Source: Pedosphaera sp.
Lineage (GTDB): Bacteria; Verrucomicrobiota; Verrucomicrobiia; Limisphaerales; SIBH01
NCBI GenBank assembly: GCA_031414955.1
Contig: JANOQV010000093.1
Span: 1 to 25,363 of the forward strand
Reading direction: 5' to 3'
Length of the DNA stretch: 25,363 nucleotides
The notes beneath the pieces were generated by a model. That model saw only the letters and a program-made list of their open reading frames with translations, ran no database searches and was not told the origin of the DNA. Of the stretch, positions 9,850-25,164 are shown piece after piece (the stretch's first letter is position 1; the number at the start of each line of letters is the position of its first letter). The translations under genes were made by a program, and so were the position numbers.

Positions 9850-9895
9850 ATTGCGCGGACCTGGATCAACAACGAAACCAAAACATAGAAATAAA

Positions 9896-11359
9896 ATGAA
9901 AAGAAACAGTCTGCTCAACCGCTGCGCGGCGCTCCTGCTCGCGGCGCAACTTCTCACTCCGGCGACCCCGCTGCTGGCCTCGAGCCACATGGACGCGCCG
10001 CTCGCCGTCCTCGATCCGGCGGCCAACACCACGGACGTGTACGCGTTCGTGGATCAGGACGGGACGAACAAGAACCTAGTCGTGGCCCTGAGCGTTTATC
10101 CGCACCAGGAGCCGGGCATCGGGCCGAACAAGTACAACTTCGACCCGGCCGTGCTCTACGAAATCCATGTCGCCCTCGGCGACGACGTGGCGGCGGGACG
10201 CAAGACGCTCAGCTACCAGTTCCAGTTTGCGACCACGTTTCGGAACCCGAACACCATCCTGCAATCCTACCTCGGCGTGATCACCAACATCGCCGACAGC
10301 GCGCAGAACCTCGTCCAGAGCTACACGGTGACGAAGGTGGATCACCGCCGGCACGGCCGGAAGACTGTGCTCGGCACCGGCCTTGTGCCGCCGAACAACC
10401 AGGGCATCGCCACGCCATTCTACAATCAGGGCGACAACGGCGCGAACCCCGCCAAGCAGGGCGTCGCGACCGAGGGCGAACTGGATCGCTACACCGCCCA
10501 GGCCATCACGAACCTGAGCGGCTACACCGCCTTCGCCGGCCAGCGCGACGACGGTTTCTACGCCGACATCCAGTCCATCTTTGATCTCCTGCAACTGCGC
10601 AATCCCGGCAAGGACTCGCAGGGCGGCTACAACCTGCACCTGATGGCTCTCGAGATTCCCGTAAGCGAACTCGGCGGCGATCAGCAGAGTGTCGGCGTGT
10701 ATGCGACCACGAGCCGCCGGCAGGTGCGCGTGCTGCGCAAGGAAGAAAACCGCAACTCCGGCCCCTGGGTGCAGGTGGCGCGGCAGGGCAACCCGCTCTT
10801 CAACGAGGGTCTCGTGGCCATCGCCGACAAAGACCTGTACAGCCGCTCCAGCCCATCCAGCGACAACAAGCTCTTCCGCAAGTACGCCGAGACGCCGGAA
10901 CTGGCCGGGCTGATCAATGCCCTTCTCCTCGGTGGCAGCGCGCCGACCATCACCACCGGGCGCACGGACATCGCGGGCATCTTCATTCCCGATCTGATCA
11001 AGGTGGATCTCTCGACCAGCAAGGCGCGCTTCGCCGGCGGCGGACCCAACCATCCGACCAACCCGGATGACACCGGCTATTCACGCCTGAGCATCTTCGG
11101 CGGCGACGTGCTGACCAGCGCGATCCAGCCCGGCTTCGGCGGCGGCACCATTCCCGGCGGCTGGCCCAATGGCCGGCGCTTCGGCGACGACGTGGTGGAC
11201 ATCGCGGTCAACGCGCTGATCAGCGACCTGCGCGTCTCCCCGCCGGTGATCAACCTGTTCCCTCCGGGCGACGGCGTGCTCTCGAACGACATGGCCTTTA
11301 GCAAGGTATTCCCCTACGAGGCGACACCGCAGAACGGCCGCAACCATTCGCATCCGTAA
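9896..11359 (+). CDS. DUF4331 domain-containing secreted protein
   Basis: Signal peptide followed by ASSHMDAP...DxTDVYAF-like segment, YNFDPAVLYEIHV, FAGQRDDGFYAD, WVQVARQGNPLFNEGL and GWPNGRRFGDDVVD, all typical of DUF4331. Start placed at ATG 9896. Confidence 0.88.
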   Translation: MKRNSLLNRCAALLLAAQLLTPATPLLASSHMDAPLAVLDPAANTTDVYAFVDQDGTNKNLVVALSVYPHQEPGIGPNKYNFDPAVLYEIHVALGDDVAAGRKTLSYQFQFATTFRNPNTILQSYLGVITNIADSAQNLVQSYTVTKVDHRRHGRKTVLGTGLVPPNNQGIATPFYNQGDNGANPAKQGVATEGELDRYTAQAITNLSGYTAFAGQRDDGFYADIQSIFDLLQLRNPGKDSQGGYNLHLMALEIPVSELGGDQQSVGVYATTSRRQVRVLRKEENRNSGPWVQVARQGNPLFNEGLVAIADKDLYSRSSPSSDNKLFRKYAETPELAGLINALLLGGSAPTITTGRTDIAGIFIPDLIKVDLSTSKARFAGGGPNHPTNPDDTGYSRLSIFGGDVLTSAIQPGFGGGTIPGGWPNGRRFGDDVVDIAVNALISDLRVSPPVINLFPPGDGVLSNDMAFSKVFPYEATPQNGRNHSHP

Positions 11360-11374
11360 ATCAAAGAGGTGGGG

Positions 11375-11403
11375 ACGGCGGCCGGACAGCCGGCCGCCGT
11401 TTT
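11375..11403 (+). terminator. Hairpin after DUF4331 gene (weak intrinsic terminator or mRNA-stabilising stem)
   Basis: Perfect 11-bp stem acggcggccgg-acag-ccggccgccgt followed by only a short T run. Confidence 0.6.
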
Positions 11404-11418
11404 GCCCTTCATGCGACC

Positions 11419-12858
11419 ATGAAAATTTTTTGTCCATCCCTGTCCCTGAACCGGAGCGCGGGCTTTCCAGCCCGCAGCAATCCCCAAATGTTCCGCAGGC
11501 CTGGCCGGAGACCAGTCGCTGGCTTATCCACGCTGCTGCGGGCTGGAAAGCCCGCGCTCCGGTTCAGTGGTTCAAGGGGTGAAATTCTGCTTCGGAGAAT
11601 TCTCTCCCCGGTGCATGGCGGCGGGTGCATCCGCGAGTGCCGCCTGCACGCCGCAATGCTCCCCGACCGATGCGTTGCCCCGGCTTGGTCCGTTGCACTG
11701 CGCACGCCGGAGTCCGCGAAGCGGGAGCTGCCGGTTTGGAAAACGGCGCTCCGGTCCGGCGCACGGCTGATCGTCCTCGGGCATTTATGCCTGGCCGTCT
11801 GTCTCTTCGCCGTCCTCGAGACTCGCGCGCACGACGCCGGCCTGAGCACGGCGACCGTGCTCTGGGAGTCCGGCCGGATGGACGCCTCGTTGACCTTCGC
11901 CCTCCAGGACGCCGGACAGTTGGCTGCGCTTGATGCGGATCAGGACGGAAAGATTTCTCCAGCGGAGTTCGCCACAGGCCGGGCGGAACTGGGCCGTCGC
12001 GTGGCGGTGAGTTTTCAAGTCCGCCAAGAGGGCAAGACTCACACGCCTGAATCCGTGGGTTGCCGGCTGGATGAAAACAACAACGTGGAGGTGAAGCTGT
12101 TGTTCTCCGCCCTCACCTCCGGGCCTGCGACCATCCAGTCAAAGCTGCTTGGCTCGCTGGCGGGCGGTCATCGCCAACTGCTGTCCGTGCGCGAGCCGGG
12201 CGGGCGTTCGCTGGCTTCGCGGCTGCTGCACGCGAAGGAGGACTCCGCCCTCGTGACGCCGCCCGACGAGGCAGCGGCGGCTTCCGCGCTCGCCGCGCCC
12301 GCACGCTTCGCCGGATTTGTTGCGCTCGGGGTGAAGCACATCTGGACCGGCTACGACCATTTGCTCTTCCTGTTTGCCCTGCTGGTGGTGACGCGCCGGC
12401 TGGCCGACGCGCTGAAAATCATCACCTGTTTCACCCTCGCGCACTCGATCACGCTGGCGCTGGCGACCTTCAACTTCGTCGCGGTGCCGGCCCGCGTGGT
12501 GGAGCCGCTCATCGCCGCGTCGATCGTTTACGTAGGGTTGGAGAATCTCCGGCGCGGCGGCGAGCCGCGCGGGCGCTGGCTGCTGACCTTCGTCTTCGGA
12601 TTGATCCACGGCTTTGGGTTCGCGTCGGTGCTGCGTGAGATGGGCGTGGGCACGGATGGAGGCGGCGTGGCGCTGCCGCTGTTCTCCTTCAACCTCGGCG
12701 TGGAACTGGGGCAGCTCGCGGTGGCGGCCCTGTTGCTCCCGTTGATCGCATGGTGCCGCTCGCGGCCGGTCTTCGTCACCCGCTGGGTGCCGGCCTGTTC
12801 CGTGGTGGTAGCGCTGGCCGGCGGCTTCTGGTTCGCCCAACGTGTCCTGGGTTATTGA
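11419..12858 (+). CDS. HupE/UreJ family membrane protein (HupE_UreJ_2 type) with N-terminal extracytoplasmic domain; start uncertain (11419, 11488 or 11656)
   Basis: GVKHIWTGYDHLLFLFAL, CFTLAHSITL, VEPLIAASI, FGLIHGFGFA, FNLGVELGQ. Signal-like segment ends in ...TRA|HD. Confidence 0.88.
   Translation: MKIFCPSLSLNRSAGFPARSNPQMFRRPGRRPVAGLSTLLRAGKPALRFSGSRGEILLRRILSPVHGGGCIRECRLHAAMLPDRCVAPAWSVALRTPESAKRELPVWKTALRSGARLIVLGHLCLAVCLFAVLETRAHDAGLSTATVLWESGRMDASLTFALQDAGQLAALDADQDGKISPAEFATGRAELGRRVAVSFQVRQEGKTHTPESVGCRLDENNNVEVKLLFSALTSGPATIQSKLLGSLAGGHRQLLSVREPGGRSLASRLLHAKEDSALVTPPDEAAAASALAAPARFAGFVALGVKHIWTGYDHLLFLFALLVVTRRLADALKIITCFTLAHSITLALATFNFVAVPARVVEPLIAASIVYVGLENLRRGGEPRGRWLLTFVFGLIHGFGFASVLREMGVGTDGGGVALPLFSFNLGVELGQLAVAALLLPLIAWCRSRPVFVTRWVPACSVVVALAGGFWFAQRVLGY
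11446..11567. repeat. REP/REPIN-like doublet (family C, copy 1)
   Basis: Perfect 34-bp inverted repeat ctgaaccggagcgcgggctttccagcccgcagca (11446-11479 / 11534-11567) with a 54-nt spacer. Confidence 0.9.
11729..11754 (-). repeat. Single REP-like unit related to family C
   Basis: Minus strand reads ccGGAGcgccgttttccaaaccggca, the same GGAG-foot + hairpin layout as GGAGcgcgggctttccagcccgca. Confidence 0.5.
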
Positions 12859-12899: not shown

Positions 12900-13028
12900 A
12901 TTCATTTCGCTCAGCGACAAAATTCGCCCGCAGCAACTGCTGAGAGGCAACAAGCTCAAGCCCTCCCGGGGCCGACGCGCCAAAGTTCGGGTTGCTTCCC
13001 GGGGCCGGAACTCTATCCTGCGCGCCCG

Positions 13029-13604
13029 GTGAGGAGTGCCCGACAAATTTCCGACTGCTGCGAGGACGCCGAGTTGCTGGCGCGGGTGGCGCGCGGCGAT
13101 ACCGAGGCTTTCGCGCAACTCTACGACCGTTGCTTCACGCTCCTTTTTTCGCTGGTGGTCCGCATGTTGCACGACGAACACGAAGCCGAGGATGTCTTGC
13201 AGGAGGCGTTCACCACGATCTGGGAACGCGCGCCGCAATACGATCCCGCCGCCGGCAAGCCGGTGACGTGGATGATTTGCCTCACCCGCAACAAGGCCAT
13301 CGACCGGCTGCGCAAACGAAAGCGCCAGGCCGCCCTGATGATGGAGACGGAGGAATCCGCCGCTATGTTGATGACGGTGGCGGAGGAAGGCGCGACCGGC
13401 ATGACCTCGGACGAGTCGTCTCTGGTGCGCCAGGCAATGGGCGCCCTGTCCGCCGAACAGCGCCGGGCCATCGACCTGGCCTTCTTCGCCGGGCTGACGC
13501 ATACGGAGATTGCCGAACAACTCGGGGAGCCGGCGGGCACCATCAAGGCGCGCATCCGCCGGGGCATGTTGACGATGCGGGACATTTTGAAAGGCCAGTT
13601 GTGA
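13029..13604 (+). CDS. ECF RNA polymerase sigma-70 factor (SigK/RpoE-like); start uncertain, GTG 13029 chosen
   Basis: Region 2: DAELLARVARGDTEAFAQLYDR, EAEDVLQEAF, TWMICLTRNKAIDRLRK. Region 4: LSAEQRRAIDLAFFAGLTHTEIAEQLGEPAGTIKARIRRG. Confidence 0.93.
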   Translation: MRSARQISDCCEDAELLARVARGDTEAFAQLYDRCFTLLFSLVVRMLHDEHEAEDVLQEAFTTIWERAPQYDPAAGKPVTWMICLTRNKAIDRLRKRKRQAALMMETEESAAMLMTVAEEGATGMTSDESSLVRQAMGALSAEQRRAIDLAFFAGLTHTEIAEQLGEPAGTIKARIRRGMLTMRDILKGQL

Positions 13605-14212
13605 ATTGCACTGAACTACAGGAGTTGGCGGCGCTCCAGGCGCTCGGCGCCCTGGACGCGGCGGACGCGGCGCGTTTGCGCGCAGCCATCGCCCACGATC
13701 CGGACGCCCAGGCCGAGGTCGCGGCGTTGCAGGACGCGGGCGCGGCGCTGGCTCATCTGGCCGGCCAGCGGAAATCGCCCCCGCCGGCCTTGCGCGCGCG
13801 ACTGCTGGAAAAAATCGCTCACACACAGCAGCTCCCAAAGGCCGCTGTCTCGTCGCCGGTGCCCCCGGCCCGCCCCGGCTTTCACTTCCTCGGTCCCAAC
13901 GAAGGCGAATGGATGTCGACGCCCATTCCGGGCATTCGCATGAAGGTCATGTCCGTCAACCGTGAGACGGGCTACTGGATGGTCAAGGCCGAGCTGGCCG
14001 CGGGCGCGCGTTTCCCGCATCACGAACATCGCGGCGCGGAAGACCTCTACATCGTCTCGGGTGATCTGCACAACGAGGGGCGAATCCTCGGGCCCGGTGA
14101 TTTCATCCACGCCGAGCCCGGCACCGATCACGGCGAACTTTATTCCCCCGGCGGTTGCCTGGCTTTGCTGATCGAGAAAGCTCCTCCCGAAGTCTTGGCT
14201 CAATTGGGTTGA
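13601..14212 (+). CDS. Anti-sigma factor with C-terminal ChrR-like cupin domain
   Basis: GTG start overlaps the sigma stop (GTGA, translational coupling). N-terminal ASD-like helix ELAALQALGALD...PPPALRARLL. Cupin motifs GARFPHHEHRGAEDLYIVSGDL and LGPGDFIHAEPGTDH. Confidence 0.87.
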   Translation: MNCTELQELAALQALGALDAADAARLRAAIAHDPDAQAEVAALQDAGAALAHLAGQRKSPPPALRARLLEKIAHTQQLPKAAVSSPVPPARPGFHFLGPNEGEWMSTPIPGIRMKVMSVNRETGYWMVKAELAAGARFPHHEHRGAEDLYIVSGDLHNEGRILGPGDFIHAEPGTDHGELYSPGGCLALLIEKAPPEVLAQLG

Positions 14213-14571
14213 GAGCCTGCGCCACCCGGAGGAGCGAGCCGTCTCACCGCCGCGATCAGGTCGGGCCGGAGAAAAGGCTTCGAAAGAAAACCATCGCATT
14301 GAAGTCCGGCGGCGGAACCGTGGGCGCTCATCAGGAGCACGGGAATGTGCCGGGTCGCCGGGTCGGACTTGAGCTGGGCCGCGAGTTCGTCGCCCATGAG
14401 ACCGGGCATCCGGATGTCCGAGACGACCACGGCGGGGAGCAATTCGCGAATCAGCGCCAGCCCGCTTTCGCCGTCGTGCGCCGTGAACACCTCGAAGCCG
14501 GAGGCGCGCAGCATCATCGCGCACGCCTCGGCCACCAGTTCTTCGTCATCAATGACCAGTACCCGAATCAT
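14200..14571 (-). CDS. Stand-alone response regulator receiver (CheY-like) protein
   Basis: VLVIDDE, SDIRMPG (phospho-Asp), LMSA, FLSKPF. 123 aa with no output domain. Confidence 0.92.
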   Translation of the reverse strand: MIRVLVIDDEELVAEACAMMLRASGFEVFTAHDGESGLALIRELLPAVVVSDIRMPGLMGDELAAQLKSDPATRHIPVLLMSAHGSAAGLQCDGFLSKPFLRPDLIAAVRRLAPPGGAGSQPN

Positions 14572-14784: not shown

Positions 14785-16287
14785 TCAGGCTGCCTGCGCG
14801 CAAAATGGTTTTCCGTCCCGTCGGCAGAGCAACTGGATCACCTGCCGTCCGGAATAAATGCTGGGCGGCACGCCGCCGCCGGGCATGACCCATTGTCCGG
14901 CCATGTAGAAATTCGCCAGGCCGGGCAGGGTTTTCTTCACCGTGGCCCGCATGGTCTTCGGCGTGGGCAGCCAGCCCATGAAGGCGCCCTGATGATTCAA
15001 CGTGTAGCGCCAGGTGGTGAGCGGCGTGGCGATGTCACGAACCTCGACCTGCGCGGTGATTCCGGGGTATTGGGTTTCCAACCGCGCCAGAACCTCGTCG
15101 GCCACGCGCTTCTTCTCGGCGGCGTAGCGCGGTTGGTCCTTCTGCAACTCGTTCCAGTAATCCCAGTCCGTGTGGACCAGCGCCTGCACCACGGTGCGGC
15201 CGGGCGGCGAAAACTTTTTGCCGTAATTGAACAGGCGCACCGGAAATCCGGGGATCGTCACGCGGCCAATGACCAACGGCTCCCTGAGGAACAGAAAGTT
15301 CAGCGGCGGCTCGCCGGGGAATTCCCGCGCCACGCCGAAGCTCAACGTGACGACGGGCGGGAGCAGCTTCCAGTTCGCGAACCGCTCTGTGATCGCCTTA
15401 TCTACGTAGCGACCGCCCAGCAGATGGAAGATCGTGCTGCGGCTGTCCCCCGCGCCGACCACCACGTCCGCGCGCAGTTCGCTGCCGTCGGCGAGGCGCA
15501 CACCCACGGCGCGATCCTGCTCCACGAGAATTTCCTTCACCGTGGAGTTGTATTGCACCTCGCCGCCCAGTTCCGCGTAGCGATCCGCGATGCTGGCGGC
15601 AAAATCGGCGCAGCTTCCTTCGAGCAGGCCCATCTGCTTGTTGGCCAGCAGACCGAGAATGAGCATGACAAACCACACCGGCACGTCCGGCAGAAAGAGA
15701 TCGCCCATGATGCGGCGCAACTCCGCGCTCTGGAAGGCCCGTGCGTATTCCTCCATGGGCTTGTTGAACTCCGGCCCGAAGTAGCGCAGTACGCGGCGCA
15801 TGCCCCAGAGCTGCTTGAGCGGACCGAACAGACCCATCAGTTCCGGCGGCGTTTCCATCAGCCCGAACAGATCGGCGCGGCGCATGGCCTTGGCCCCCGC
15901 GATGAATCCGGCGATGAGCTTTGTGTCCGCCGGTGCGAGTTGGTTCAGGTCGCGTTCGAGACGGTCGAGGTCGTGGGTGAAACTGATCTGCTTGCCCGTC
16001 ACCTCGTCGGTGAAACGCACGAAGGTGTCGAGGTCGGGATAGCGGCGGTTCTTGAGGATGCCGAGCTGCCGGTAAACGTCATGGCAGGCCTGGCCGGGCT
16101 TGTGGCCCATCAAATAATGAATCCCGCCGTCAATGAGATAGCCCTGGTTCGGCCAGGCCGTGGCCACACCGCCCGGTTCGCTGTGATGCTCGACGATGCG
16201 CGTGCGGTAGCCGTTCATGCGGCCGTAAATGCCGGCGGACAACCCGGCCACTCCCGCGCCGATGATGAGAATTGATGTTTCAGCCAT
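14785..16287 (-). CDS. FAD-dependent oxidoreductase, phytoene desaturase-like family (COG1233)
   Basis: Start placed at ATG 16287 (MAETSILIIGAGVAGL, GxGxxG). Motifs GYLIDGGIH, DIATPLTTWRYT and LANFYMAGQWVMPGGGVP. Confidence 0.88.
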   Translation of the reverse strand: MAETSILIIGAGVAGLSAGIYGRMNGYRTRIVEHHSEPGGVATAWPNQGYLIDGGIHYLMGHKPGQACHDVYRQLGILKNRRYPDLDTFVRFTDEVTGKQISFTHDLDRLERDLNQLAPADTKLIAGFIAGAKAMRRADLFGLMETPPELMGLFGPLKQLWGMRRVLRYFGPEFNKPMEEYARAFQSAELRRIMGDLFLPDVPVWFVMLILGLLANKQMGLLEGSCADFAASIADRYAELGGEVQYNSTVKEILVEQDRAVGVRLADGSELRADVVVGAGDSRSTIFHLLGGRYVDKAITERFANWKLLPPVVTLSFGVAREFPGEPPLNFLFLREPLVIGRVTIPGFPVRLFNYGKKFSPPGRTVVQALVHTDWDYWNELQKDQPRYAAEKKRVADEVLARLETQYPGITAQVEVRDIATPLTTWRYTLNHQGAFMGWLPTPKTMRATVKKTLPGLANFYMAGQWVMPGGGVPPSIYSGRQVIQLLCRRDGKPFCAQAA

Positions 16288-16452
16288 GTGTGCGAAGACC
16301 CTCACAGCACAACACGGCGGCGTGTGTCCCCACAAGAATTTTGCGGGTAACGAGGTGATGCTTTTCCACACCCGCCAAAGGAGTCGCAGCAACATTTCTC
16401 GACCGGCCCTTCGGTCTCTCCTGAAGCGCTAAACCGTATCCATGCAGTTGAA

Positions 16453-16595
16453 GCCTCACGCAAAGGCCGCAAAGGACGCGAAGGACAGAGCCAGAGCGGG
16501 ATTTTCTAATCCAGGGCAGCCCCACTAATCAGTGCGGGATCCATGCGGGTCGGAACCCGAATTCCTTCGCGCCCTTTGCGGACTTTGCGTGAGGC
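16453..16595. repeat. Inverted-repeat element built from 9-nt units (CGCAAAGG[C/A]) (family E)
   Basis: Arms 16453-16485 and 16563-16595 are 31/33 reverse-complementary. Each arm carries three 9-nt units. Confidence 0.85.
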
Positions 16596-16664
16596 ATCCC
16601 AATTCTCGACCACACCGTTCCGGCTAAAACTGGTTTCGACTTGGTGGCCGCAGTAAGCGGTTCG

Positions 16665-19322
16665 CTAGGGTTTGAACAAGCGGAAATATCGGTGCGAGTT
16701 CAGCGGCTGATTGGTGAATACGAGATTCGTCCAGGTGACCCCGTTGGTGACGAGATACGTCTGCCACAGCGTGTTGGTGCTCAACAGGTTCGTGGTGCTT
16801 TGCACCACGTAGTTACTGCCCAGCAACACGCCGCTGCAACACACGAAAGCTCCGTTCGTGTTCAACTCACCGTGCAACTCATGCAACTTGGGCCAGGTCA
16901 AAGTCACCTGCACCTGGTTGGGGGACAGGTTCGTGTACCCGTTCACGTCTTCCACCGTCGCTCTGATCACATGCACCCCTTGCGTCAATCCCTGGCTCGT
17001 GGTCTGAAAAGCGGGAGCGTTCGAGCTCTCCCCGATCTTGATTGCGCCATCCCAATACTCCACGCGCCGGATGTTGTAGCTGCCGGCCACGGTTTGCGCC
17101 GAAAGCTTCAGGTGCGCCGGGCCGCAGATGACCCACTGGATGGTGTTCGAAGGCGTGGTCAGCGTGACGGCGGGCGAAAGGTTCGTCACCACCACCGTCC
17201 CGAGGACGGTGTTGTTCGCCTCGCTGCTCTCCGCGATCTGACCCGTAAAGTCCGCGGTGGCGAATAAGGTGTAGGTGCCGTTGGAAATGGGCGGCATCGT
17301 GAAATTCCCGCCCTGCCCGTAGCCTGTCAGGTTGCGAAATGCCGGACTAATCGGGAACACGTAATTCGTGCTCGCGTTGCTGATCGAGAGCCGGTCTGTC
17401 CACGTTGCCGCCAAGGCGCTGGCCCCGGCGTTCGTCACCCTCCACGACAACCATGCGGGCCGGCCCGCCACCAGCGTGGTCGCGGGAACAGAAGTGGTGA
17501 ACTTGTTCGTCGCCACCAGGCCAGACGAAACCAGGTCGTAATCCGCGAGCAGGATGCGCAAGTCGCCCGCCGTAGCCGTGGCGCTGCCGGCCAGGATGTG
17601 ATACTGCGTGCCCGCCACGCCGATGAAATTCAGGCTGGCGTATCCGCTGCAATACGGCCCGCTGCTGTTCGTGCAAGCCACCAAGTTGGATGAACCGCAT
17701 CCGCCCTGATAAACAGCCAGCGCCGTTGGAAAACTGCTTCCACAAGTGGTGAGCGCATACGCCCGCGCCACCGTGGACGTGAAGGTGTACCAAACCCCGT
17801 GACTCAGACCCGGCGAGCACGCCGGTTGGGGATCGTTCAATTCCGTGGCGTTCAAAGTGTTCACGCTGTACGGCACCCCCACCGTCATCGGAATGGCGTT
17901 CGGGCACTGGTCATTGTTCGGCGGCACCACGTCGGCCAGAATGTTCAGCTTTTGACCCGGCGCAATATTCCCTCCGACGAGAATGTAGTAGGTCAACCCT
18001 CCGACATCTGTGAAATTCACGCTGGCCTTGCCCGAACAAGCCACTGGGCCAGATTGATTCGCGCACTTGAACTCTACAGGTGACTCGCAATTCCCCGTAT
18101 AGATGGCCATCACCGTGCCAAATTCACTTCCGCAAGTGCCAACTGTTACTCTGGCTCCCGACGGAGGAGTTAACTGGTACCAAACGCCCCGGCTGATGTT
18201 CGCTGCGCAATTCGTATTCGGATCCATTATTTCCGTCGCATAAAACATATTGCTCACGCTGTAGGTCACGCCCGACTGCATCACGATGGCGTTGGCGCAG
18301 GTGTCGTTGCCGGGCGGGTCCTGCAGATCGGCGAGGATGCGCAGGATGCCGGTGGCGGTGGCGCTGTTGGCTCCGGCTTGGATGTAGTAGGTGGAGTTGG
18401 CCGGGCTGCTGAAGCTCACGCTGGCCTGGTAGTTCCCAAACGAGCAGTAGGGGCCGTTGTTGTTGTTGCCCGTGATCTCCCGGAGCGTGCCGCAGTCGTT
18501 GGTGTAGATGGCCAGGCCGGTGTCGAAGTCGCTGGCGCAGGTGGTGATGTTGAGCCGCTGGCTGTTCGTGTTCGTGATCTTGAACCAGACGCCCCGGTAG
18601 ATGCCGCTGTCCCAGCCGTTGGTCCGCACATCGCCCAGTTCGGTCGCGTAGAAGAAGTTGCTCACGCTGTAGGTCTGGCCCGAGTTCATCACGATGGCGT
18701 TGGCGCAGGTGTCGTTGCCGGGCGTAAGGTTATCAGCGGCTGCATCGGTTAGGCGCAGGCTGTTGTCATCCAAGTAGGCATCCAGCGGTGTTCCCGAAAA
18801 ACGAACAAACTGCATCACGTAGGCGATGCTGCGCGTGTCGGGAGGAACGGCGAAGACTCTGGTGTGTTGCAGCCAGCTTGCGCTGGCTATCCTGATGGTC
18901 GCGGCCGCTCCAAGACTCTGGTTGCTGGCGTTGAAGAAGTTGAGGGACACGAATGCGGAGTCGCTCTGTCCACTGAGCGTGCGCTCCCAGAAGCTCACTT
19001 CGGCTCGTACGGAACCAGCGTCCACCGCGCCCAGGCTAAAGCCGCCGACGTTGGTGATGCTGACGATTTGGGTCAGGCTCCCGCTCGCGCCTGTGCCGCC
19101 CACGAAATCGTAGCTGCCCGGTGGGTGGGGAAGGATGCTGGGATTAAATGTGCCCGAGTCCACGAAGGGCGAGGAAGTGCCGCCCACAGTCCAGTTGGTC
19201 AGGCTGCCGGCCTCGGCACCGGGATTCAAAAGAAGGTTGGTGGAGTAGGTCTGAGCGTGGAGCGCGGGCAGGCCAAAGACGGCGTGCAGGAGCAGGAGGG
19301 AAGCTTGGAGAAGTTTTTTCAT
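16665..19322 (-). CDS. Large secreted modular protein: galactose-binding/FBA-like N-domain, three ~130-aa Cys-containing repeats, CARDB-like and Ig-like domains, short C-terminal domain
   Basis: Signal peptide MKKLLQASLLLLHAVFGLPALHA (ATG 19322). NLLLNPGAEAG...W; 3x ND[TQ]C.NAI.M..G..YSV...ATE..D...GVW[FY]; GTYTLFATAD...IAESSEANN (CARDB-like); GVHVIRATVEDVNG (Ig-like). Domain names are by eye. Confidence 0.8.
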   Translation of the reverse strand: MKKLLQASLLLLHAVFGLPALHAQTYSTNLLLNPGAEAGSLTNWTVGGTSSPFVDSGTFNPSILPHPPGSYDFVGGTGASGSLTQIVSITNVGGFSLGAVDAGSVRAEVSFWERTLSGQSDSAFVSLNFFNASNQSLGAAATIRIASASWLQHTRVFAVPPDTRSIAYVMQFVRFSGTPLDAYLDDNSLRLTDAAADNLTPGNDTCANAIVMNSGQTYSVSNFFYATELGDVRTNGWDSGIYRGVWFKITNTNSQRLNITTCASDFDTGLAIYTNDCGTLREITGNNNNGPYCSFGNYQASVSFSSPANSTYYIQAGANSATATGILRILADLQDPPGNDTCANAIVMQSGVTYSVSNMFYATEIMDPNTNCAANISRGVWYQLTPPSGARVTVGTCGSEFGTVMAIYTGNCESPVEFKCANQSGPVACSGKASVNFTDVGGLTYYILVGGNIAPGQKLNILADVVPPNNDQCPNAIPMTVGVPYSVNTLNATELNDPQPACSPGLSHGVWYTFTSTVARAYALTTCGSSFPTALAVYQGGCGSSNLVACTNSSGPYCSGYASLNFIGVAGTQYHILAGSATATAGDLRILLADYDLVSSGLVATNKFTTSVPATTLVAGRPAWLSWRVTNAGASALAATWTDRLSISNASTNYVFPISPAFRNLTGYGQGGNFTMPPISNGTYTLFATADFTGQIAESSEANNTVLGTVVVTNLSPAVTLTTPSNTIQWVICGPAHLKLSAQTVAGSYNIRRVEYWDGAIKIGESSNAPAFQTTSQGLTQGVHVIRATVEDVNGYTNLSPNQVQVTLTWPKLHELHGELNTNGAFVCCSGVLLGSNYVVQSTTNLLSTNTLWQTYLVTNGVTWTNLVFTNQPLNSHRYFRLFKP
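18250..18724. repeat. Intragenic 67-bp direct repeat at the starts of protein repeats 1 and 2
   Basis: 18250-18316 versus 18658-18724: 63/67 identical including a 38-nt exact block. Period 408 nt. Confidence 0.9.
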
Positions 19323-19380
19323 AAGGCTGTTGGCGCGTTGTTTCGCAGTTGTTGTCCGTGTTTCCAATTTGTTTCACCCC

Positions 19381-19413
19381 TACATGCGGCGTGGCGGCGG
19401 GGTTGGGGCCAAA
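19381..19413 (-). promoter_or_regulatory. Putative ECF promoter TTTGGCCCC-N16-CGCATGTA upstream of the secreted protein
   Basis: Matches 22940-22972 at 16 of 17 box positions with an identical 16-nt spacer length. Confidence 0.75.
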
Positions 19414-19449
19414 AATCTTCCGCCGGTCACAGAAAGATTCGGACCTCGT

Positions 19450-22400
19450 TCATTTCCTGTTCGCCGTCCGGTCGAAAGCTTCCAACTTTTGCCGCCACTC
19501 GGCGGCTTGGGCGGGCTTGGACCAGGCTTCGTAGAGGCGGATGAGGCGGCTCAGGGAGTCTCGGATGTAGTCGGTGCTGACTCCTCGCGCGGCTTGCAGG
19601 GCGGCGGCGGACTCGAGCAACAACGGCTCGGCCTCGGCGAGTTTGGTCAGGCGGACTTCGGGGGCCAGCGTGGCATCCGTGACAGAGATGGTGGCGAGCG
19701 CGAAGCCAAGACGGCTGTTCACGTCGGCCACGCGCCAGGAGTTCGCGTTCGTCCCGCGCTGGCGGATGGCGAGGCACTCGCGCAGGAGGCGTTCGGCTTC
19801 TTGGGCGCGTTCCAGCGGAGTCACGGCGACAGGCGCGGAGTTGCTGCGTTCAGCCCACGCCAGCTCGGTGAGGCAGCGGGCGAGGCTGGCGGCGTACGCA
19901 AGGGTGTATTCGTTGCTGGAGGTGGTGGCGACGCGCTGGCTCTGGATCGCGATTCGGTAGAGCGGTTCGGCTTCCGAGAATTTGCCTGCCCGATACAGGG
20001 CGTCGGCGCGGCGGTAGTCGCTTCCCGCACTGAAGCCGCCCGAAGTGTTGGTTCCTGAAAGAGCGGTGGAGCGTTTCGCGGGCGCATTGGTCTGGTCTTT
20101 CAGTTTCGCGACTTCGGCCCACAAGGCGTCGGCGTCGGTCTGGCGTCCGGCGGATTGATAGGCCTCGGCGAGCCGCCGGGTGCTGAACAGAATGTTCGGA
20201 TGGTTCGGACTGAGGGTGGCCCGCCGCTGTTGCAGGGTTTGCTCGAAAAGTGACACGGCTTCAACGTGCCGTCCGGCGTCCCCGTAGGCTCCCGCGAGGT
20301 TGTTCATGATCACGAGCGTGGAAGGATGGTTCGTGCCGAGCGAAGCCAGGGCCCGGCGCAACAGTTCCTCGTACAAGACGGTGGCCTCATCAAGCCGACG
20401 GGCGTCATGGTGGGTCGAGGCGATGGCGTTCAGGATGGTCAGGGTCGTCGAATGGCCGGGGCCGAGCTTGGCCTCGGCCAGTTGCAGGGCGTTGGTCAGA
20501 AGGCTCATGGCCTTTTCGGGCTGGCCAGCTTTTTTGTAATCCGACGCAAGGTTGTGCATGCTGGCCAAAGTGAGGGGATGGTCGTCGCCCAGTTTGGTCT
20601 GCCGCAATTTCAAGGCTTCGTCATCGATCCGGATCGCATCGGCGATGCGACCGGACTGGCGATAATCAGCCGCGAGGTTGTTCATGGAGACGAGGGTGGC
20701 CGGGTGGTTCGGACCAAGTTTGGCCTTGCGGAGGTTCAGCGCCTGTTCGTTCAAAGCCACGGCGTCGCCCCACCGGTGGGCGTCAGCGTAGGCCGAGGCC
20801 AGATTGTTCATCACACTCAAGGTGGAGGGATGGTCGGCCCCTTGCCGGCTTTTGCGCGCCGCGAAAACTTCTTCAAACAGCGGCCGCGCCTCGTCCACCC
20901 GGCCCGCATGATGGCAGGCCAGAGCCAGATTATTTTTGTAGTTCAGCGTGCTTAAATCCTCGGCCCCGCGCTTGGCTGTGGAAAGTTGCACGGCGTCTCG
21001 AAGCAGGGCGATGGCTTCGTCGAGACGGTCCACGTCGTCATACGCGCGCCCGAGGTTGTTCATGGAGGTCAACACGCTGGAGTCGTCAGGGCCTAATTTG
21101 GCCCGGCGGAGTTTGAGCGTTTCTTCGTACATCGGAATGGCTTCGCTCAAGCGGCCCGCGTCCTGAAGCGACGCGGCGAAGCCGTTCATGCTGTCCAGCG
21201 TGTCAGGATGGTCGGGACCGAGGTTGGCTTTTCGGAGCCGCAACACTTCCTCCATCAGCGGCAGGGCCTCCTTCACGCGTCCGGCCTCTTTCAACTTCGC
21301 CGCGTAGATAAACATCGCGTTCCAGGTGTTGGAGTGGCCCAAGCCGTATTGGGCTTGCGCTGACTTCAGGGCGGCTTCCCGAAGTGCGAGGTCATTTTGG
21401 ACGTATGGCACCACCTCCCGGGCCTGTTCGATGGTTCGGTGTGCATCACGGATCGCCTGGCGAATCTCCGCCTTGATCTCGATTTGCTCCGTTGAATTCG
21501 TGCCGACGAGGTTGCTGGCGTTGTCCAAAAAATCTTTCAGCAGCGTGGCATCCAATCCTTTGACCGAGGACAACGTGTTGGAAATAAACTGGACGGCCCA
21601 CTGACTTTTTCCAGCTTCTGCCTTCGCTTGATGCTCCGCGCGTGTGGCCCGGACGGCCTGCCAGCTTGTGGCCGCAATGCCTGCGACCAGAACCGCCAGC
21701 ACCACTGCGGCGGCGAGACACGCAAACCTGTGTCGGCGGACAATTTTTCCGAGACGATAGGCTGTGCTCAGCGGGCGGGCGACGACGGGTTCGTTGCTCA
21801 GGTGGTGCTGGATGTCCGCCGCGAAATCGGTCGCCGTTCCGTAGCGGCGTTCCCGCTCCTTCGCCAGCGCCTTCATCACGATCCAGTCGAGATCGCCTTG
21901 CACGCGCTGGGCGAGCTTGGCGGGCGCGGTGTGGCGGCGTTGGGCGGTGGTGGTGAGGGCGGCGGCGGTCAGGGCGCGCAGCCGCGTTGAGGGCCGGGCC
22001 GGCTCTTGCTCGCAAATGGTGCGCTGCATGGCCTGCAAGCCGATCCGCATCAACTCCTGCCCGTCGAAGGGCGTCTGGCCGACGAGCAATTCATAAAGCA
22101 GCACGCCCAGGCTGTAGATGTCGCTGCGGGTGTCGATGTCCAGTCCGCTCGTCTCGGCCTGCTCGGGACTCATGTAGGCCGGCGTGCCGATGACCTGACC
22201 GTGTGAGGTGAACAGGGTTTTTTCCGTGAGCCGCTGGTCCGTCGCTTTGGCGATGCCGAAGTCGATGACCTTGGGCACGGGCACGCCGTCGTGCAGCGTG
22301 ACGAGGATGTTCGAGGGCTTGATGTCGCGGTGAATGATGCCCTTCTGGTGCGCGTGCTGGATGGCCTGGCAGACTTGCAGGAACAGCTGCAGCCGTTGCT

Positions 22401-22926
22401 CGGTGGGGAGCTGATTGTCGTCGCAATACTCCGTGATGCGGACGCCGCACACCAGTTCCATGACGAAGTAGGGGCGGCCCGCGTCCGTCGCGCCCGCGTC
22501 GAGCACGCGGGCAATGTTCGGGTGGTCCATCATTGCGAGCGCCTGGCGTTCGGCCTCGAAGCGTGCGATGACGGAGCGCGTATCCATGCCGAGCTTGATG
22601 ACCTTGAGCGCGACGCGGCGGCGCACCGGCTCCTGCTGCTCAGCCAGGTACACGACGCCCCAGCCGCCTTCGCCGATTTGTTCCAAGAGCTTGTAGCGCC
22701 CGATGCGGTCGCCTGGCTTTTCGGTCACGACGGCTACTCGCGCCTTGTTGGCGAGAAAACTTTCGCCGCTTTGGATGGCCTGAAGCAGTTCATCCACGCG
22801 GGCGCGCAGCGCGGCGTCACCGGCGCAAGCCTGGTCGAGGAAAGCAAGGCGCGCTTCCGGCGAGGCGATGTCCAGCGCCTCGGCGAAAATGTCCTGCTCG
22901 CGATCCGGTAGTTCGTTCGTGCTCAT
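19450..22926 (-). CDS. Membrane Ser/Thr (Hanks-type) protein kinase with C-terminal TPR array
   Basis: [46 protein letters not shown]. One TM helix ([19 protein letters not shown]). About 10 repeats of ~42 aa of the LGPDHPxTLxSMNNLA type. Confidence 0.95.
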
Positions 22927-22939
22927 GAGTGACTGCCTT

Positions 22940-22972
22940 TACAAGCGACACGGTGACGGTTTAGGGGCCAAA
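22940..22972 (-). promoter_or_regulatory. Putative ECF promoter TTTGGCCCC-N16-CGCTTGTA upstream of the kinase
   Basis: Second copy of the motif at 19381-19413. Lies in the 90-nt sigma-kinase gap, 13 nt from the kinase ATG. Confidence 0.75.
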
Positions 22973-23016
22973 TGTTTTTTCCCAGGGCTGGCGGACGGGC
23001 CGAACGCGGCCCGGCG

Positions 23017-23586
23017 TCAGAGATTCTTTTTCAATTCAACCTGGAGCCAGGCGCGGGCAAACCTCCATTTGCGCTTGGCAGTAGTTTCTGAAATCTCAAG
23101 TGATTCCGCCGCCTCCTCATTGCCCATCTCACCGAAGAAGCGGCGCTTGACCAGCTCGGCGCAGATGGGGTCGCGGACAACCAGTTTTTCGAGCGCCTCA
23201 TGCACAGCGAGGATGGTTTCATCGTTGCTGGCCGAGGCCACGTCGAGGTTTTCCCAATCAACATCCTCGACACGCTGCATTTCTCCGCCGCGTTTAATGC
23301 GTCCCTTGGCCCGGGCTTTGTCCACCAAGATGCAACGCATGGCCTCCACTGCGACGCTGAAAAAATGGGCCCGGTTATCAAATCGGGTCGCGCCCTCCGG
23401 CCCGGCCAGCTTGAGCCAGGCTTCGTGAACCAGCGCGGTGGGTTGCAGGGTCTGCCCGGCCTTTTCGCCCTGCATTTTGTGCGCGGCGATGCGGCGCAGT
23501 TCATCATAGACGAGCGGGAACAATTCGGCGGCGGCGAGTTGGTCGCCCCCGGCCACCGCCTGAAGGATGCGGGTGACTTCGGTCAT
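23017..23586 (-). CDS. ECF sigma factor, TIGR02999/ECF43-type (kinase-associated)
   Basis: EVTRILQ...GD..AAAELFPLVYDELRRIA, TLQPTALVHEAWLKL, NRAHFF, AMRCILVD.AR...KRGG, LVKRRFFG, KWRFARAWL. Directly upstream of an STK gene. Confidence 0.93.
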   Translation of the reverse strand: MTEVTRILQAVAGGDQLAAAELFPLVYDELRRIAAHKMQGEKAGQTLQPTALVHEAWLKLAGPEGATRFDNRAHFFSVAVEAMRCILVDKARAKGRIKRGGEMQRVEDVDWENLDVASASNDETILAVHEALEKLVVRDPICAELVKRRFFGEMGNEEAAESLEISETTAKRKWRFARAWLQVELKKNL

Positions 23587-23650
23587 GCGCACGGTTCATA
23601 ACATGACGGACCGGAGGAACCAGAGTGAAAACAAGAGGCACGTCTGCCGC

Positions 23651-23821
23651 AGGGTGCATCTCCTCACTGCGCTTGTTGACTTGGCCGTGACAAGAGATGC
23701 GGGGGGGGTGTCCGGTGCTGTGCTCAGCGCGCCTGGCCATGATACGAAGAAACACTTCCGCATGTTTCACGCCTCACCCCGGCGCACCGCCATCCTTTGG
23801 TGGTACCTCCAAGATGCGCCC
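23651..23821. mobile_element. Possible degenerate MITE-like element (family F)
   Basis: Ends gggtgcatct (23652-23661) and agatgcgccc (23812-23821) are 9/10 inverted. The left end and an internal 17-mer recur at 25251 and 25310. Confidence 0.35.
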
Positions 23822-23823
23822 GG

Positions 23824-25164
23824 CTACACCTTCCAAGGGCTGCGGTACTCGCGCGTGAGCCACTTCGGATCGCCAGTGCCGCCCACGAATTTGAACTTCG
23901 CCGGATCCCATTTGAGTTTCTGGCCGTGGTAGTAGGCCAGGTTCATCAGGTGGCAGCAGATGACCGTGCGCCCGCCGACCTGTTCGTTGGTGATGGGTTT
24001 CTTGCGCTCACGGACGCATTGCAGGAAGTCCGTCATGTGATTGTTGCTCACGTAGAGCTTCACCTTCGCGTCCTTCAGGAAGGCTTCCTCTGCCTTCTTT
24101 ACTTCGGCGGCGAGGGACGTTTCGCTTTCCTTGGCGTCGGCTTTCTTGCCCGTGAAGGACGCGGCCATCTCGTTCCCGCGCTTGAAGGTGAATCTGCCGC
24201 GGTTGACCTGCACCACGCCTTCGGTGCCGAAGAACTCGACGCCGAAGCCGTTGGTGTGTTCCACGGTGACGCCGTTGGCATAGACCAGTTTGGCTCCACG
24301 CTTCTTGCCGACGGCGGGTGGGAGAATCTCGACCGGCCCGCTTTCGTCCATGCCGAGTCCCCATTGCGCGATGTCGAGATGATGCGCGCCCCAATCCGTG
24401 ACCATGCCGCCACCGAACTCGCGGTAATTGCGCCAGTCGGGGAAATTGTCATGCATCCCGCGCGGGCTGAGGACCGCGCTGTACGGTCGTTCCGGCGCGG
24501 GTCCAAGCCAGAGGTTCCAATCCAAACCTGGCTCGGCCGGTTGCTCCGGCAGATCGCAGGGCCGGCCCGGGTCGCCGAACGAGCACTCGACACGTTGGAT
24601 TTTGCCGATGGCACCGTTGCGCACCAGTTCGCAGGCGACGCGGAATTCTTTGCTCGAGCGCTGCATCGAGCCGGTCTGAAGCACGCGCTTGTTGGCATCC
24701 ACGGCCTTCATCACTTCCACCGCCTCTTGGATGTTGTGGGTGAGCGGCTTCTCGCAATAGGCATCCTTGCCCGAGCGCAGGGCGGCCAGCGTGATGATGG
24801 CGTGCCAGTGATCCGGCGTGGCAATGCAGACGGCGTCGATGTCTTTGCGGGCGATCAACTCGCGGAAGTCGATGTAGGCCGTGCAGCCGTCGCCGGCCTT
24901 GGCCCCCTTCTTCTCGTAATACTCATCGACCCGCTTCTTGGCGTTCTCCCGGCGCGTGGTGTCCACGTCGCACACGGCCAGCACCTGGGTCGGTTGCCCG
25001 AGGAACGCGCCGAGCAACCCGCGCGATTGCTTGCCCATGCCGATGAAGCCCATGCGGAGCTTGGGGGTGGGTTGGGTTTCTGCCGCCCAGATTGGGGCGG
25101 GCAGCAGAAGGGGAACACCGGCCACCGAAGCCGACTTGATGAAGGAACGCCGTGAGATGCGCAT
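23824..25164 (-). CDS. Tat-exported Gfo/Idh/MocA family oxidoreductase
   Basis: MRISRRSFIK twin-arginine signal (ATG 25164). LRMGFIGMG, IDAVCIATPDHWH, YCEKPL, LQTGSMQRS, LDWNLWLGPAP, GGMVTDWGAHHLDIAQW. Confidence 0.93.
   Translation of the reverse strand: MRISRRSFIKSASVAGVPLLLPAPIWAAETQPTPKLRMGFIGMGKQSRGLLGAFLGQPTQVLAVCDVDTTRRENAKKRVDEYYEKKGAKAGDGCTAYIDFRELIARKDIDAVCIATPDHWHAIITLAALRSGKDAYCEKPLTHNIQEAVEVMKAVDANKRVLQTGSMQRSSKEFRVACELVRNGAIGKIQRVECSFGDPGRPCDLPEQPAEPGLDWNLWLGPAPERPYSAVLSPRGMHDNFPDWRNYREFGGGMVTDWGAHHLDIAQWGLGMDESGPVEILPPAVGKKRGAKLVYANGVTVEHTNGFGVEFFGTEGVVQVNRGRFTFKRGNEMAASFTGKKADAKESETSLAAEVKKAEEAFLKDAKVKLYVSNNHMTDFLQCVRERKKPITNEQVGGRTVICCHLMNLAYYHGQKLKWDPAKFKFVGGTGDPKWLTREYRSPWKV

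Follow-up and report, generated by a model that had tools for sequence, protein, structure and literature searches.

The genes for a sigma factor (23586–23017), a kinase (22926–19450) and an 885-aa repeat protein (19322–16665) follow one another on the minus strand of the window, the whole 25,363-nt stretch of DNA that was analyzed here, in the order that an earlier note on this DNA had given. The sigma gene (23017–23586) encodes an ECF sigma factor of 189 aa that is matched by TIGR02999 (199 bits, cut-off 126) and PF07638 (E 2e-57), which we take to stand for the ECF43 sequence family of EcfK-type sigmas. In region 2.2, an uncharged QTTA-type motif with a threonine replaces the acidic DAED motif: QPTA, within LQPTALVHE, aligns to QAED of Mycobacterium tuberculosis SigL, and Thr50 (codon 23437–23439, minus strand) is the predicted phospho-acceptor by sequence alignment. 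A threonine occupies this position in 131/131 aligned sigmas and in 99/100 held-out ones. Cys85 in region 2.4 (codon 23332–23334, minus strand) corresponds in the alignment to the Asn of SigL RNMIID, a position that is Arg in 210 of 231 relatives, and residues 166–171 (SETTAK; 23074–23091, minus strand), aligned with SigL AEGTVK, form the predicted region 4.2 recognition helix. The protein shows 6 deviations among 59 conserved columns, a number that 5 of 131 sigmas reach, its gene has a GC3 at the 4th percentile, and its end branch is the longest among 57 sigmas. One locus, L246, was dropped as a 71% relative of this sigma, since the similarity came from a truncated alignment row.

The adjacent gene (19450–22926, minus strand) encodes a Hanks-type receptor kinase of 1158 aa with PknS architecture (Pkinase at 78–338, followed by TPR_10/12 arrays), and PknS itself is the best PDB match (9EED, E 7e-54). 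The kinase motifs are intact, 3 deviations occur across 164 conserved columns, and the conservation is ordinary. The sole predicted transmembrane helix (aa 401–419; 21670–21726, minus strand) is the only hydropathy peak above 1.6, and with a layout like that of PknS this single helix would place the TPR array outside the cytoplasm. A three-helix N-terminal domain (aa 5–62; 22741–22914, minus strand) is shared with PknS, as its profile matches 9EED residues 9–56 (E 6e-6); it was modeled with a pLDDT of 76.5, and a complex prediction with the sigma gave a weak score of 0.48 versus 0.02 for the control. The domain is thus weakly predicted as a candidate sigma-docking domain. Its 68 members showed no recurring Pfam family, Foldseek gave no match at E ≤ 0.001, a wide structure search returned generic helical bundles (best Z 6.7), no anti-sigma family or fold was matched, though one may still be present, the nearest Atlas clusters were unnamed, and a profile comparison with the sigma yielded nothing. 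No separate anti-sigma gene was found among the neighbours in the module. The ECF43-type pairing of sigma and kinase that the earlier note had proposed is supported by these comparisons (TIGR02999, the QPTA motif with Thr50, the PknS-like kinase), and the sigma–kinase system as such fits a known kind.

The third gene (16665–19322, minus strand) encodes a repeat protein of 885 aa as assembled, for which domain and structure comparisons gave an N-terminal domain, three Cys-containing beta-sandwich repeats, CARDB, an Ig-like domain and a C-terminal FRLFKP tail. The N-terminus is signal-peptide-like when judged by eye and the protein is probably secreted; a catalytic domain was not found in it. 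Homologues of the three repeats carry both domains of PF23759 (GBD_T9SS_assoc)/PPC repeat surface proteins, whereas the window protein itself matched only PPC, with an E of 0.003 that lies below the cut-off. Its structure model resembles CUB-like folds and the tandem binding domains of clostridial ColG (5IKU), with low whole-chain TM-scores, and Atlas matches were all under 0.9. A binding or adhesion protein that serves as a replaceable output is likely. The gene is probably longer than assembled: the first 408-nt (136-codon) repeat unit (18315–18722, minus strand) probably stands for about four tandem copies, nearly identical, that the assembly merged into one; read-based unitig depth over it was 57.1 versus 14.6 in run X1 and 39 versus 9.3 in run X2, and one contig of run X7 goes back 408 nt at this repeat. 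All three frames of the locus are open, and contigs of two runs agree with them without differences; the source may be one of these runs.

Two-box motif copies at the locus and in the genome

Both motif copies that had been described are present on the minus (coding) strand, one before the kinase gene (22972–22940) and one before the repeat-protein gene (19413–19381). Copy 1 reads TTTGGCCCC-TAAACCGTCACCGTGT-CGCTTGTA and copy 2 reads TTTGGCCCC-AACCCCGCCGCCACGC-CGCATGTA, which confirms the claimed identity of 16/17 box positions; the spacers, said to be largely different, do differ at 8/16 positions but also agree at 8/16, more than that wording implied. The strict pattern TTTGGCCCC-N16-CGC(A/T)TGTA occurs twice in the 6.55-Mb genome, both times inside the window, and was absent from 100 dinucleotide shuffles of the window. 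We predict that promoter 1 (22940–22972) consists of the −35 box TTTGGCCCC at 22972–22964, a 16-nt spacer and the −10 box CGCTTGTA at 22947–22940, and promoter 2 (19381–19413) of the −35 box TTTGGCCCC at 19413–19405, a 16-nt spacer and the −10 box CGCATGTA at 19388–19381. With the pyrimidine–purine step at offset 5|6 that is described below, the kinase mRNA would start at 22934 (C|A step, 8-nt leader) and the repeat-protein mRNA at 19375 (T|G step, 53-nt leader), both on the minus strand. The −10 box of promoter 1 has a T where 94% of the training sites have an A. Upstream of the sigma gene no copy was seen before, and this holds with the matrix as well, as the top score within 250 nt is 7.1, versus 12.8 and 20.5 at the two sites; a promoter of its own, as it characterizes autoregulated ECF genes, is therefore not apparent 5′ of this sigma gene. 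A sigma-70 scan of 16200–24000 returned no promoter, and both terminator-like matches in it were intragenic. A 7-bp hairpin 3′ of the sigma stop codon (22996–23013, minus strand) has no U tract and was not called a terminator, and no terminator was found between the sigma and kinase genes.

The looser pattern TTTGGCCC-N17-CGCWTG has five copies in the genome. The three outside the window precede two lone kinases, on contigs C226 and C142, and one small signal-peptide gene on contig C84, and they read TGGCCCA where the window pair reads TGGCCCC. Promoter 2 is the fourth-best intergenic matrix match genome-wide, with matches below about 17 bits not confidently separable from controls. Contig C184 encodes a sister sigma that is the closest paralogue of the window sigma (60.6%); it has no adjacent kinase, no deviations at conserved columns and Arg85, it groups with sigmas that have TGGCCCA promoters, and its helix predicts the same −35 hexamer as that of the window sigma. 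A 67-nt piece resembling the 3′ end of the C142 kinase gene lies after it. Trees gave no supported clade for the window sigma or kinase, and descent from the C184/C226/C142 set is for this reason not claimed. The description of the cassette as self-contained is at most partly right in view of the three further sites and the sister sigma; the same applies to the idea of one dedicated output, given the other sites, the variable nature of the passenger gene and the search of 11 genomes of the genus, in which no third-gene orthologue was found.

Motif conservation and covariation with sigma residues

The earlier note had suggested scanning relatives for the motif. The strict form did not rise above the reversed control in 40 relatives; it represents one dialect, and a general matrix was therefore used. 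The general form TG(G/A/T)NNC-N17-CGCATG precedes the kinase in 38/65 related loci, scored at sigma–kinase junctions with a leave-one-out matrix threshold of 12 or more, which was reached by 19/1300 shuffles and 1/65 reverse strands. Among held-out loci, 20/74 reached the threshold versus 0/74 on the reverse strand; sub-threshold junctions thus number 27/65 in the training set and 54/74 in the held-out set. Where the kinase precedes the sigma, 7 of 15 loci reached it. Outside Verrucomicrobiota the matrix performed poorly, with the threshold reached at 1 of the 18 loci that were scored from other or unnamed phyla. Upstream of the sigma, the motif was found in none of 65 sigma-first loci and in 5 of 70 held-out ones, and this placement before the kinase rather than the sigma fits a feedback on the kinase. 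The motif was also recovered de novo 5′ of kinases in related genomes, with the full two-box form in only 1 of 8 sampler restarts.

The two boxes lie on the coding strand 5′ of genes at a nearly fixed distance, with TG exactly 23 nt 5′ of CGCA in 33 of 50 anchors and no other single offset in more than 8. The pyrimidine–purine step at offset 5|6 recurs in 30/44 related sites, is present at both window sites, and stays put while the distance from motif to ATG ranges from 5 to 85 nt. Second sites exist within 21/56 loci, mostly before differing secreted proteins, which makes the third gene a variable passenger, and 16 of 24 differ from the −35 hexamer of their locus by at most one letter, versus 20% of random pairs.

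The letters of both boxes change in step with the predicted DNA-reading residues of the sigma: −35 letters track residues 168 and 171 of the region 4 helix, and −10 letters track residue 85. With close kin excluded, the complete set of four variable −35 letters is predicted correctly from six residues of the helix for 26/57 sigmas, compared with 6/57 from the rest of the protein; this helix window had been chosen from a scan for mutual information in this very sigma set, and another six-residue window reached 15/57. The position rules held in held-out sigmas (K/R171 with C, 9/9; D/E171 with G, 7/9; R168 with C, 8/8), and exact four-letter prediction succeeded there in only 6/21 cases versus 3–4/21. 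Two other SET(T/S)AKR sigmas, at L134 and L135, also have TGGCCC. For the −10 box, sigmas with Arg85 have TG-N21/22-CGCA(T/C) at 60/109 kinase-adjacent loci and the others at 1/11 (Fisher p 0.004, kinship ignored), and the Ser77-Val78-Cys85 variant occurs together with a CGCTT box at the unrelated locus L206. De novo recovery, spacing, start step and covariation together support the earlier proposal that the motif is a promoter, and the two-box motif very likely is the promoter of this sigma family.

Proposed circuit and alternative readings

With a probability of roughly 0.7, we consider the two copies to be promoters of the neighbouring ECF43-type sigma, which would be activated by the kinase via Thr50 and drive both the kinase gene, as feedback, and the repeat-protein gene. 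Lacking the acidic core-binding motif and carrying QPTA instead, the sigma would be inactive until Thr50 is phosphorylated by the adjacent membrane kinase. By analogy with PknS, an unspecified outside cue may be sensed by the TPR array and activate the kinase, which would then, as for EcfK and EcfP, phosphorylate Thr50, possibly once its three-helix N-terminal domain has docked to the sigma. The covariation suggests that region 4.2 reads TGGCCC and region 2.4 reads CGC(A/T)TG, with RNA predicted to start at the two steps 6 nt past the box. The positive feedback loop would amplify the kinase and not the sigma, which suits a sigma that needs phosphorylation to become active; since no terminator was found between the two genes, basal kinase could be supplied by read-through. 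The third gene would be a swappable output. The module is not sealed, as the −35 hexamer is predicted to be readable by the sister sigma too, which may share promoter 2. A doubtful extension, put forward tentatively, is that the readable two-box code and the kinase docking domain keep paralogous switches apart without anti-sigmas, with promoter 1 as a private loop (Cys85/CGCTTG) and promoter 2 (CGCATG) open to the sister sigma too; if true, one length-variable surface-protein output would integrate two sensors.

The sister sigma also leads to a different reading, in which the window sites are real family promoters that are mainly read by the C184 sigma, and the window, instead of being its own switch, belongs to a dispersed regulon with kinases on C226, C142 and in the window, and outputs on C84 and in the window. 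The close and undeviating C184 paralogue with its TGGCCCA-promoter grouping, the C142-like piece behind it, and a promoter 2 spacer that agrees with the C226 spacer at 10/16 positions would fit, but the window sites read TGGCCCC and not the TGGCCCA that the outside sites share with the C184 clade, the −10 variant of promoter 1 is the one that accompanies other Cys85 sigmas, C184 being an Arg85 sigma, and second sites in relatives keep the dialect of the local sigma; we regard this reading as unlikely. It is quite improbable that the module is decaying, with a drifted sigma, a promoter 1 in which an important base was lost, and a motif that is the relic of a once-working cassette: the deviations, low GC3 and long end branch of the sigma would be explained, as would the fact that a search of the 11 genus genomes via the third gene found no orthologous cassette, yet all three reading frames are open, with contigs of the two runs in agreement, the kinase is ordinarily conserved, the Ser77-Val78-Cys85 and CGCTT pair recurs at L206, and both boxes and both start steps were retained while half of the spacer positions differ.

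Very little speaks for a motif that accompanies these kinase genes as the site of some other regulator or as an RNA-level or translational signal. Shared descent can yield covariation, and the −10 box includes an ATG that is followed by purine-rich letters; however, the covariation is strongest at the helix residues and persists without close kin, each box follows its own sigma domain, the start step keeps its place at differing distances from the start codon, and neither an Rfam match nor unusual RNA structure (z −0.54 and 0.55) was found.

Relation to known ECF43 systems

The closest described system, so far as the text examined goes, is EcfK/PknS (ECF43) of Xanthomonas citri, in which the sigma likewise adjoins a receptor kinase whose helical N-terminal extension precedes a Hanks domain, a single membrane helix and TPRs on the outside, and a conserved Thr within a QTTA-type consensus motif, T51, is phosphorylated, with linker T106 as a second site (PMC13147305). 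The TPR array of the window kinase is longer than that of PknS, and the EcfK target is a type VI secretion system, whereas the predicted output in the window is one repeat protein. In the same text, neither an EcfK promoter sequence nor a pknS feedback was found (“feedback” and “autoregul”, 0 occurrences; PMC13147305). EcfP/PknT (ECF43) of Vibrio parahaemolyticus governs a polymyxin-resistance regulon, and EcfP, which has no anti-sigma, is likewise inactive until the Thr replacing the acidic DAED residue is phosphorylated; the review text gives no promoter motif for it (PMC8999054, PMC8103513). As in classical autoregulated ECF promoters (Casas-Pastor et al. 2021, PMC7826278), two boxes with a near-fixed spacer would be read by regions 4 and 2, but the window site lies behind the sigma gene and before the kinase. 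Promoter searches upstream of sigma genes would therefore miss the motif in sigma-first loci. An ECF43 promoter was not found in the paper passages that were searched.

Promoter consensus, exact predicted starts and residue-level rules could make ECF43 regulons predictable from sequence, and the rules may offer orthogonal kinase-gated switches. ECF43-type sigmas are numerous yet unstudied in this order, where they were present in 73 of the 121 genomes searched, with up to 18 matches per genome.

Two copies of a putative promoter motif

Both motif copies lie exactly where the earlier note had placed them on the coding strand (minus), at 22972-22940 (site 1) and 19413-19381 (site 2), with boxes identical at 16 of 17 letters. 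Site 1 starts 44 nt past the stop codon of the sigma gene (23586-23017) and ends 13 nt short of the ATG of the kinase gene (22926-19450), and site 2 starts 36 nt past the kinase stop codon and ends 58 nt short of the ATG of the third gene (19322-16665). A scan of the 6.55-Mb genome for the strict pattern, a 9-nt TGGCCC-type −35 box, N16 and a CGC(A/T)TGTA −10 box, retrieved just these two sites, and 0 of 100 window shuffles contained a match. The reported lack of the motif upstream of the sigma gene also held, as the best score there was 7.1 and nothing comparable was present. The spacers of the two sites are identical at 8 of 16 positions, which suggests a common origin. Judged from the sequence, the motif is real and most likely a promoter.

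Related loci carry the same type of signal. Among the listed sigma matches in genomes of the window's order, we fetched 120 (a further 126 lie outside the listing), in a set that omits own-genome and many contig-edge matches. The 124 sigma hits comprise 65 with a kinase gene after the sigma gene, 15 with a kinase gene before it only, 35 with neither, and 9 at contig edges. With the 65 kinase-upstream regions, a two-box sampler returned TG(G/A/T)N-N19/20-CGCATG in the best of 8 restarts. Using a matrix built from the 46 best sites, with leave-one-out scoring and a threshold of 12, sites were detected in 38/65 kinase-upstream regions vs 19/1300 shuffles and 1/65 reverse strands, and in none of the 65 regions before sigma genes. 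Matrix sites also precede the kinase in 7 of the 15 kinase-first operons and occur in 8/56 regions 3′ of the kinase. In a held-out set of 100 loci from metagenomes and other orders, 20/74 sigma–kinase junctions scored (reverse strand 0/74; before sigma 5/70), and most junctions of this set are thus devoid of a scoring site; some of these use other −35 letter variants (dialects) or longer gaps, and others may have no site.

Several traits are promoter-like. TG is found exactly 23 nt upstream of 33 of 50 CGCA anchors, a pyrimidine–purine step occurs at offset 5|6 past the box in 30/44 sites, and purines occupy offsets 6–8 in 91–95%, with box-to-ATG distances that range from 5 to 85 nt across the sites analyzed for the start step. 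Transcription starts are marked by a purine at +1 that follows a pyrimidine at −1. As both window sites have this step, starts are predicted at 22934 and 19375.

The sigma–kinase pair and its match to the letters of the putative promoter

The system is of an already known kind. The window sigma (189 aa) passes TIGR02999, its QPTA motif aligns with QAED of the M. tuberculosis sigma factor SigL, and the predicted phospho-acceptor Thr50 is invariant across 131 aligned relatives. For the Xanthomonas citri pair EcfK/PknS, QTTA is given as the ECF43 consensus, T51 of EcfK is phosphorylated by PknS, and PknS consists of an N-terminal helical extension, a kinase domain, a membrane helix and periplasmic TPRs (PMC13147305). 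The window kinase (1158 aa) has the same layout and intact catalytic motifs, and PknS is its closest solved relative. Passages from reviews, from the paper on ECF classification and from that on PknS contained no ECF43 promoter sequence; a motif may be given in the classification supplement, in the original reports on EcfK and EcfP or in planctomycete papers.

The N-terminal domain common to the window kinase and PknS is conserved and three-helical. Its predicted complex with the sigma scored 0.48 vs 0.02 for the best control, with at least 81% contact agreement between runs and a partner pLDDT of at least 72. The mark for this score is reached by 116/157 solved complexes and 2/215 mismatches, and those reaching it at 0.60 or below are just 18 solved complexes and both mismatches. 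Docking of this domain to the sigma may be regarded as a weak, model-based lead. Near 22090-22270 of contig C109 of this genome, a separate gene, some 60 codons long and situated between a kinase and a sigma gene, encodes solely such a domain, and Atlas clusters of similar 64–69-aa proteins exist. Such free docking domains could be inhibitors, or remnants.

Sigma residues 168, 171, 167 and 166 carry the most mutual information on those −35 letters that vary; in the alignment they match the SigL region 4.2 helix. By nearest neighbor, leaving out kin above 68% identity, six helix residues predicted all four −35 letters for 26/57 sigmas, vs 6/57 with the rest of the protein and 15/57 and 5/57 with two control segments. 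Since the six-residue segment was chosen after the mutual-information scan, a fair test is given by the held-out loci, and there the exact four-letter prediction was weak (6/21 vs 3–4/21). Single-residue rules held in that set, K/R171 with C (9/9), D/E171 with G (7/9, never C) and R168 with C (8/8). TGGCCC, as in the window, is also found beside two other SET(T/S)AKR sigmas.

The CGCA form of the −10 box occurs at 60/109 kinase-adjacent Arg85 loci vs 1/11 with other residues, counts uncorrected for kinship. At residue 85 the window sigma has Cys, as do the sigmas of just two further kinase-adjacent loci, L206 (CGCTTC) and L109 (CGTTAC). Both of these loci have T at the fourth −10 position, at sites that were chosen by eye among 2 and 5 candidate strings and have the −35 predicted from the helix. 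With three loci in all, the T of site 1 may therefore be matched to the window sigma and no defect. A decay of this module copy is possible, as 6 of the 59 conserved columns deviate in the sigma and its GC3 is low; however, the reading frames are intact in read contigs, conservation of the kinase is ordinary, and part of the sigma's deviation is also seen in L206.

A recurring unit with exchanged outputs

The earlier note had proposed a self-contained cassette with one dedicated output. The cassette is less closed than this picture: sites exist outside the window and the output is exchanged. This sigma family is represented in the genome by seven full members and a broken one. TTTGGCCC-N17-CGCWTG has five copies in the genome, every one before a gene: two are in the window, the lone kinases on C226 and C142 are each preceded by one, and the fifth is upstream of a gene on C84 for a 200-aa signal-peptide protein. 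The latter three are TGGCCCA, as beside relatives of a lone sister sigma on C184. At 146930-146680 of C184, what comes after this sigma is 67 nt left from the 3′ end of a C142-like kinase gene, together with a stretch that also occurs in the region before the C84 site.

Paralogues have other dialects and other neighbors: the back-to-back promoters on C61 and C109 read TGAGCC, and the sites on C123 and C105 read TGTCCC. Near 12436-12456 of C61 and 25708-25730 of C109, two copies of the predicted promoter overlap back-to-back; a kinase–sigma operon would be transcribed one way and a secreted-protein gene the other, and the sigma would be autoregulated. The end of C123 and the start of C105 appear to continue one kinase region, with TGTCCC sites before the kinase on C123 and before two signal-peptide genes on C105. 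At 3835-4360 of C269, residues 1–62 of a TIGR02999 sigma and the tail of a secreted-protein gene are joined in one reading frame, a rearrangement or an assembly chimera.

Among relatives' loci with a main site, 21/56 have a second one. Second sites are at most one letter off the local −35 hexamer in 16/24 cases vs 20% of random pairs, and of the 23 distinct second sites, 12 lie before genes for unrelated signal-peptide proteins (by eye). These sequence comparisons indicate that sigma, kinase and promoter recur as a unit, with the output swapped between loci. In L119 and L164, from two genomes of a single family, the gene that follows the second promoter is acyltransferase-like (by eye) instead of encoding a secreted protein.

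The third gene and its surroundings

The third gene starts signal-peptide-like (by eye) and encodes three beta-sandwich repeats, followed by CARDB and an Ig-like domain; homologues of the repeats contain PF23759 and PPC. The structure model, in which just the repeats and the C-terminal part are confident, is similar to CUB-like and collagen-binding folds. As no catalytic domain was found in the protein, a role in binding or adhesion is suggested.

The best named relatives place the organism probably in the Verrucomicrobiota. The window stretch is present in two freshwater-sediment runs of one study, either of which may be where it came from. In two runs, a unitig over 18287-18716 has about 4 times the depth of its flanks, a contig of a third run loops back 408 nt at the first repeat, and no further copy of the 408-nt repeat was found elsewhere in the genome. 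The first repeat (18315-18722) is collapsed in the assembly; judged from depth, the real gene likely holds about four near-identical in-frame tandem copies, encoding about 1300 aa, and protein length may differ between strains. In 11 genomes of the genus no orthologue was found, and four of these had weak repeat matches only. A repeat-array paralogue at 1618-5360 of C73 follows a protease-like domain (by eye) in one fused protein and is absent from the intergenic promoter matches.

3′ of the third gene, a short inverted-repeat element (16475-16565) resembles REP-type repeats, and its arms recur with different middles in many contigs of other organisms. Elsewhere in the window, a TPR protein, a DUF4331 protein and a HupE/UreJ–EF-hand protein are encoded consecutively (8410-12858, plus strand), a long frame ends in a ChrR-like cupin domain (12992-14212, plus strand), and a single-domain response regulator is encoded at 14200-14571 (minus strand), the latter two with approximate gene starts.
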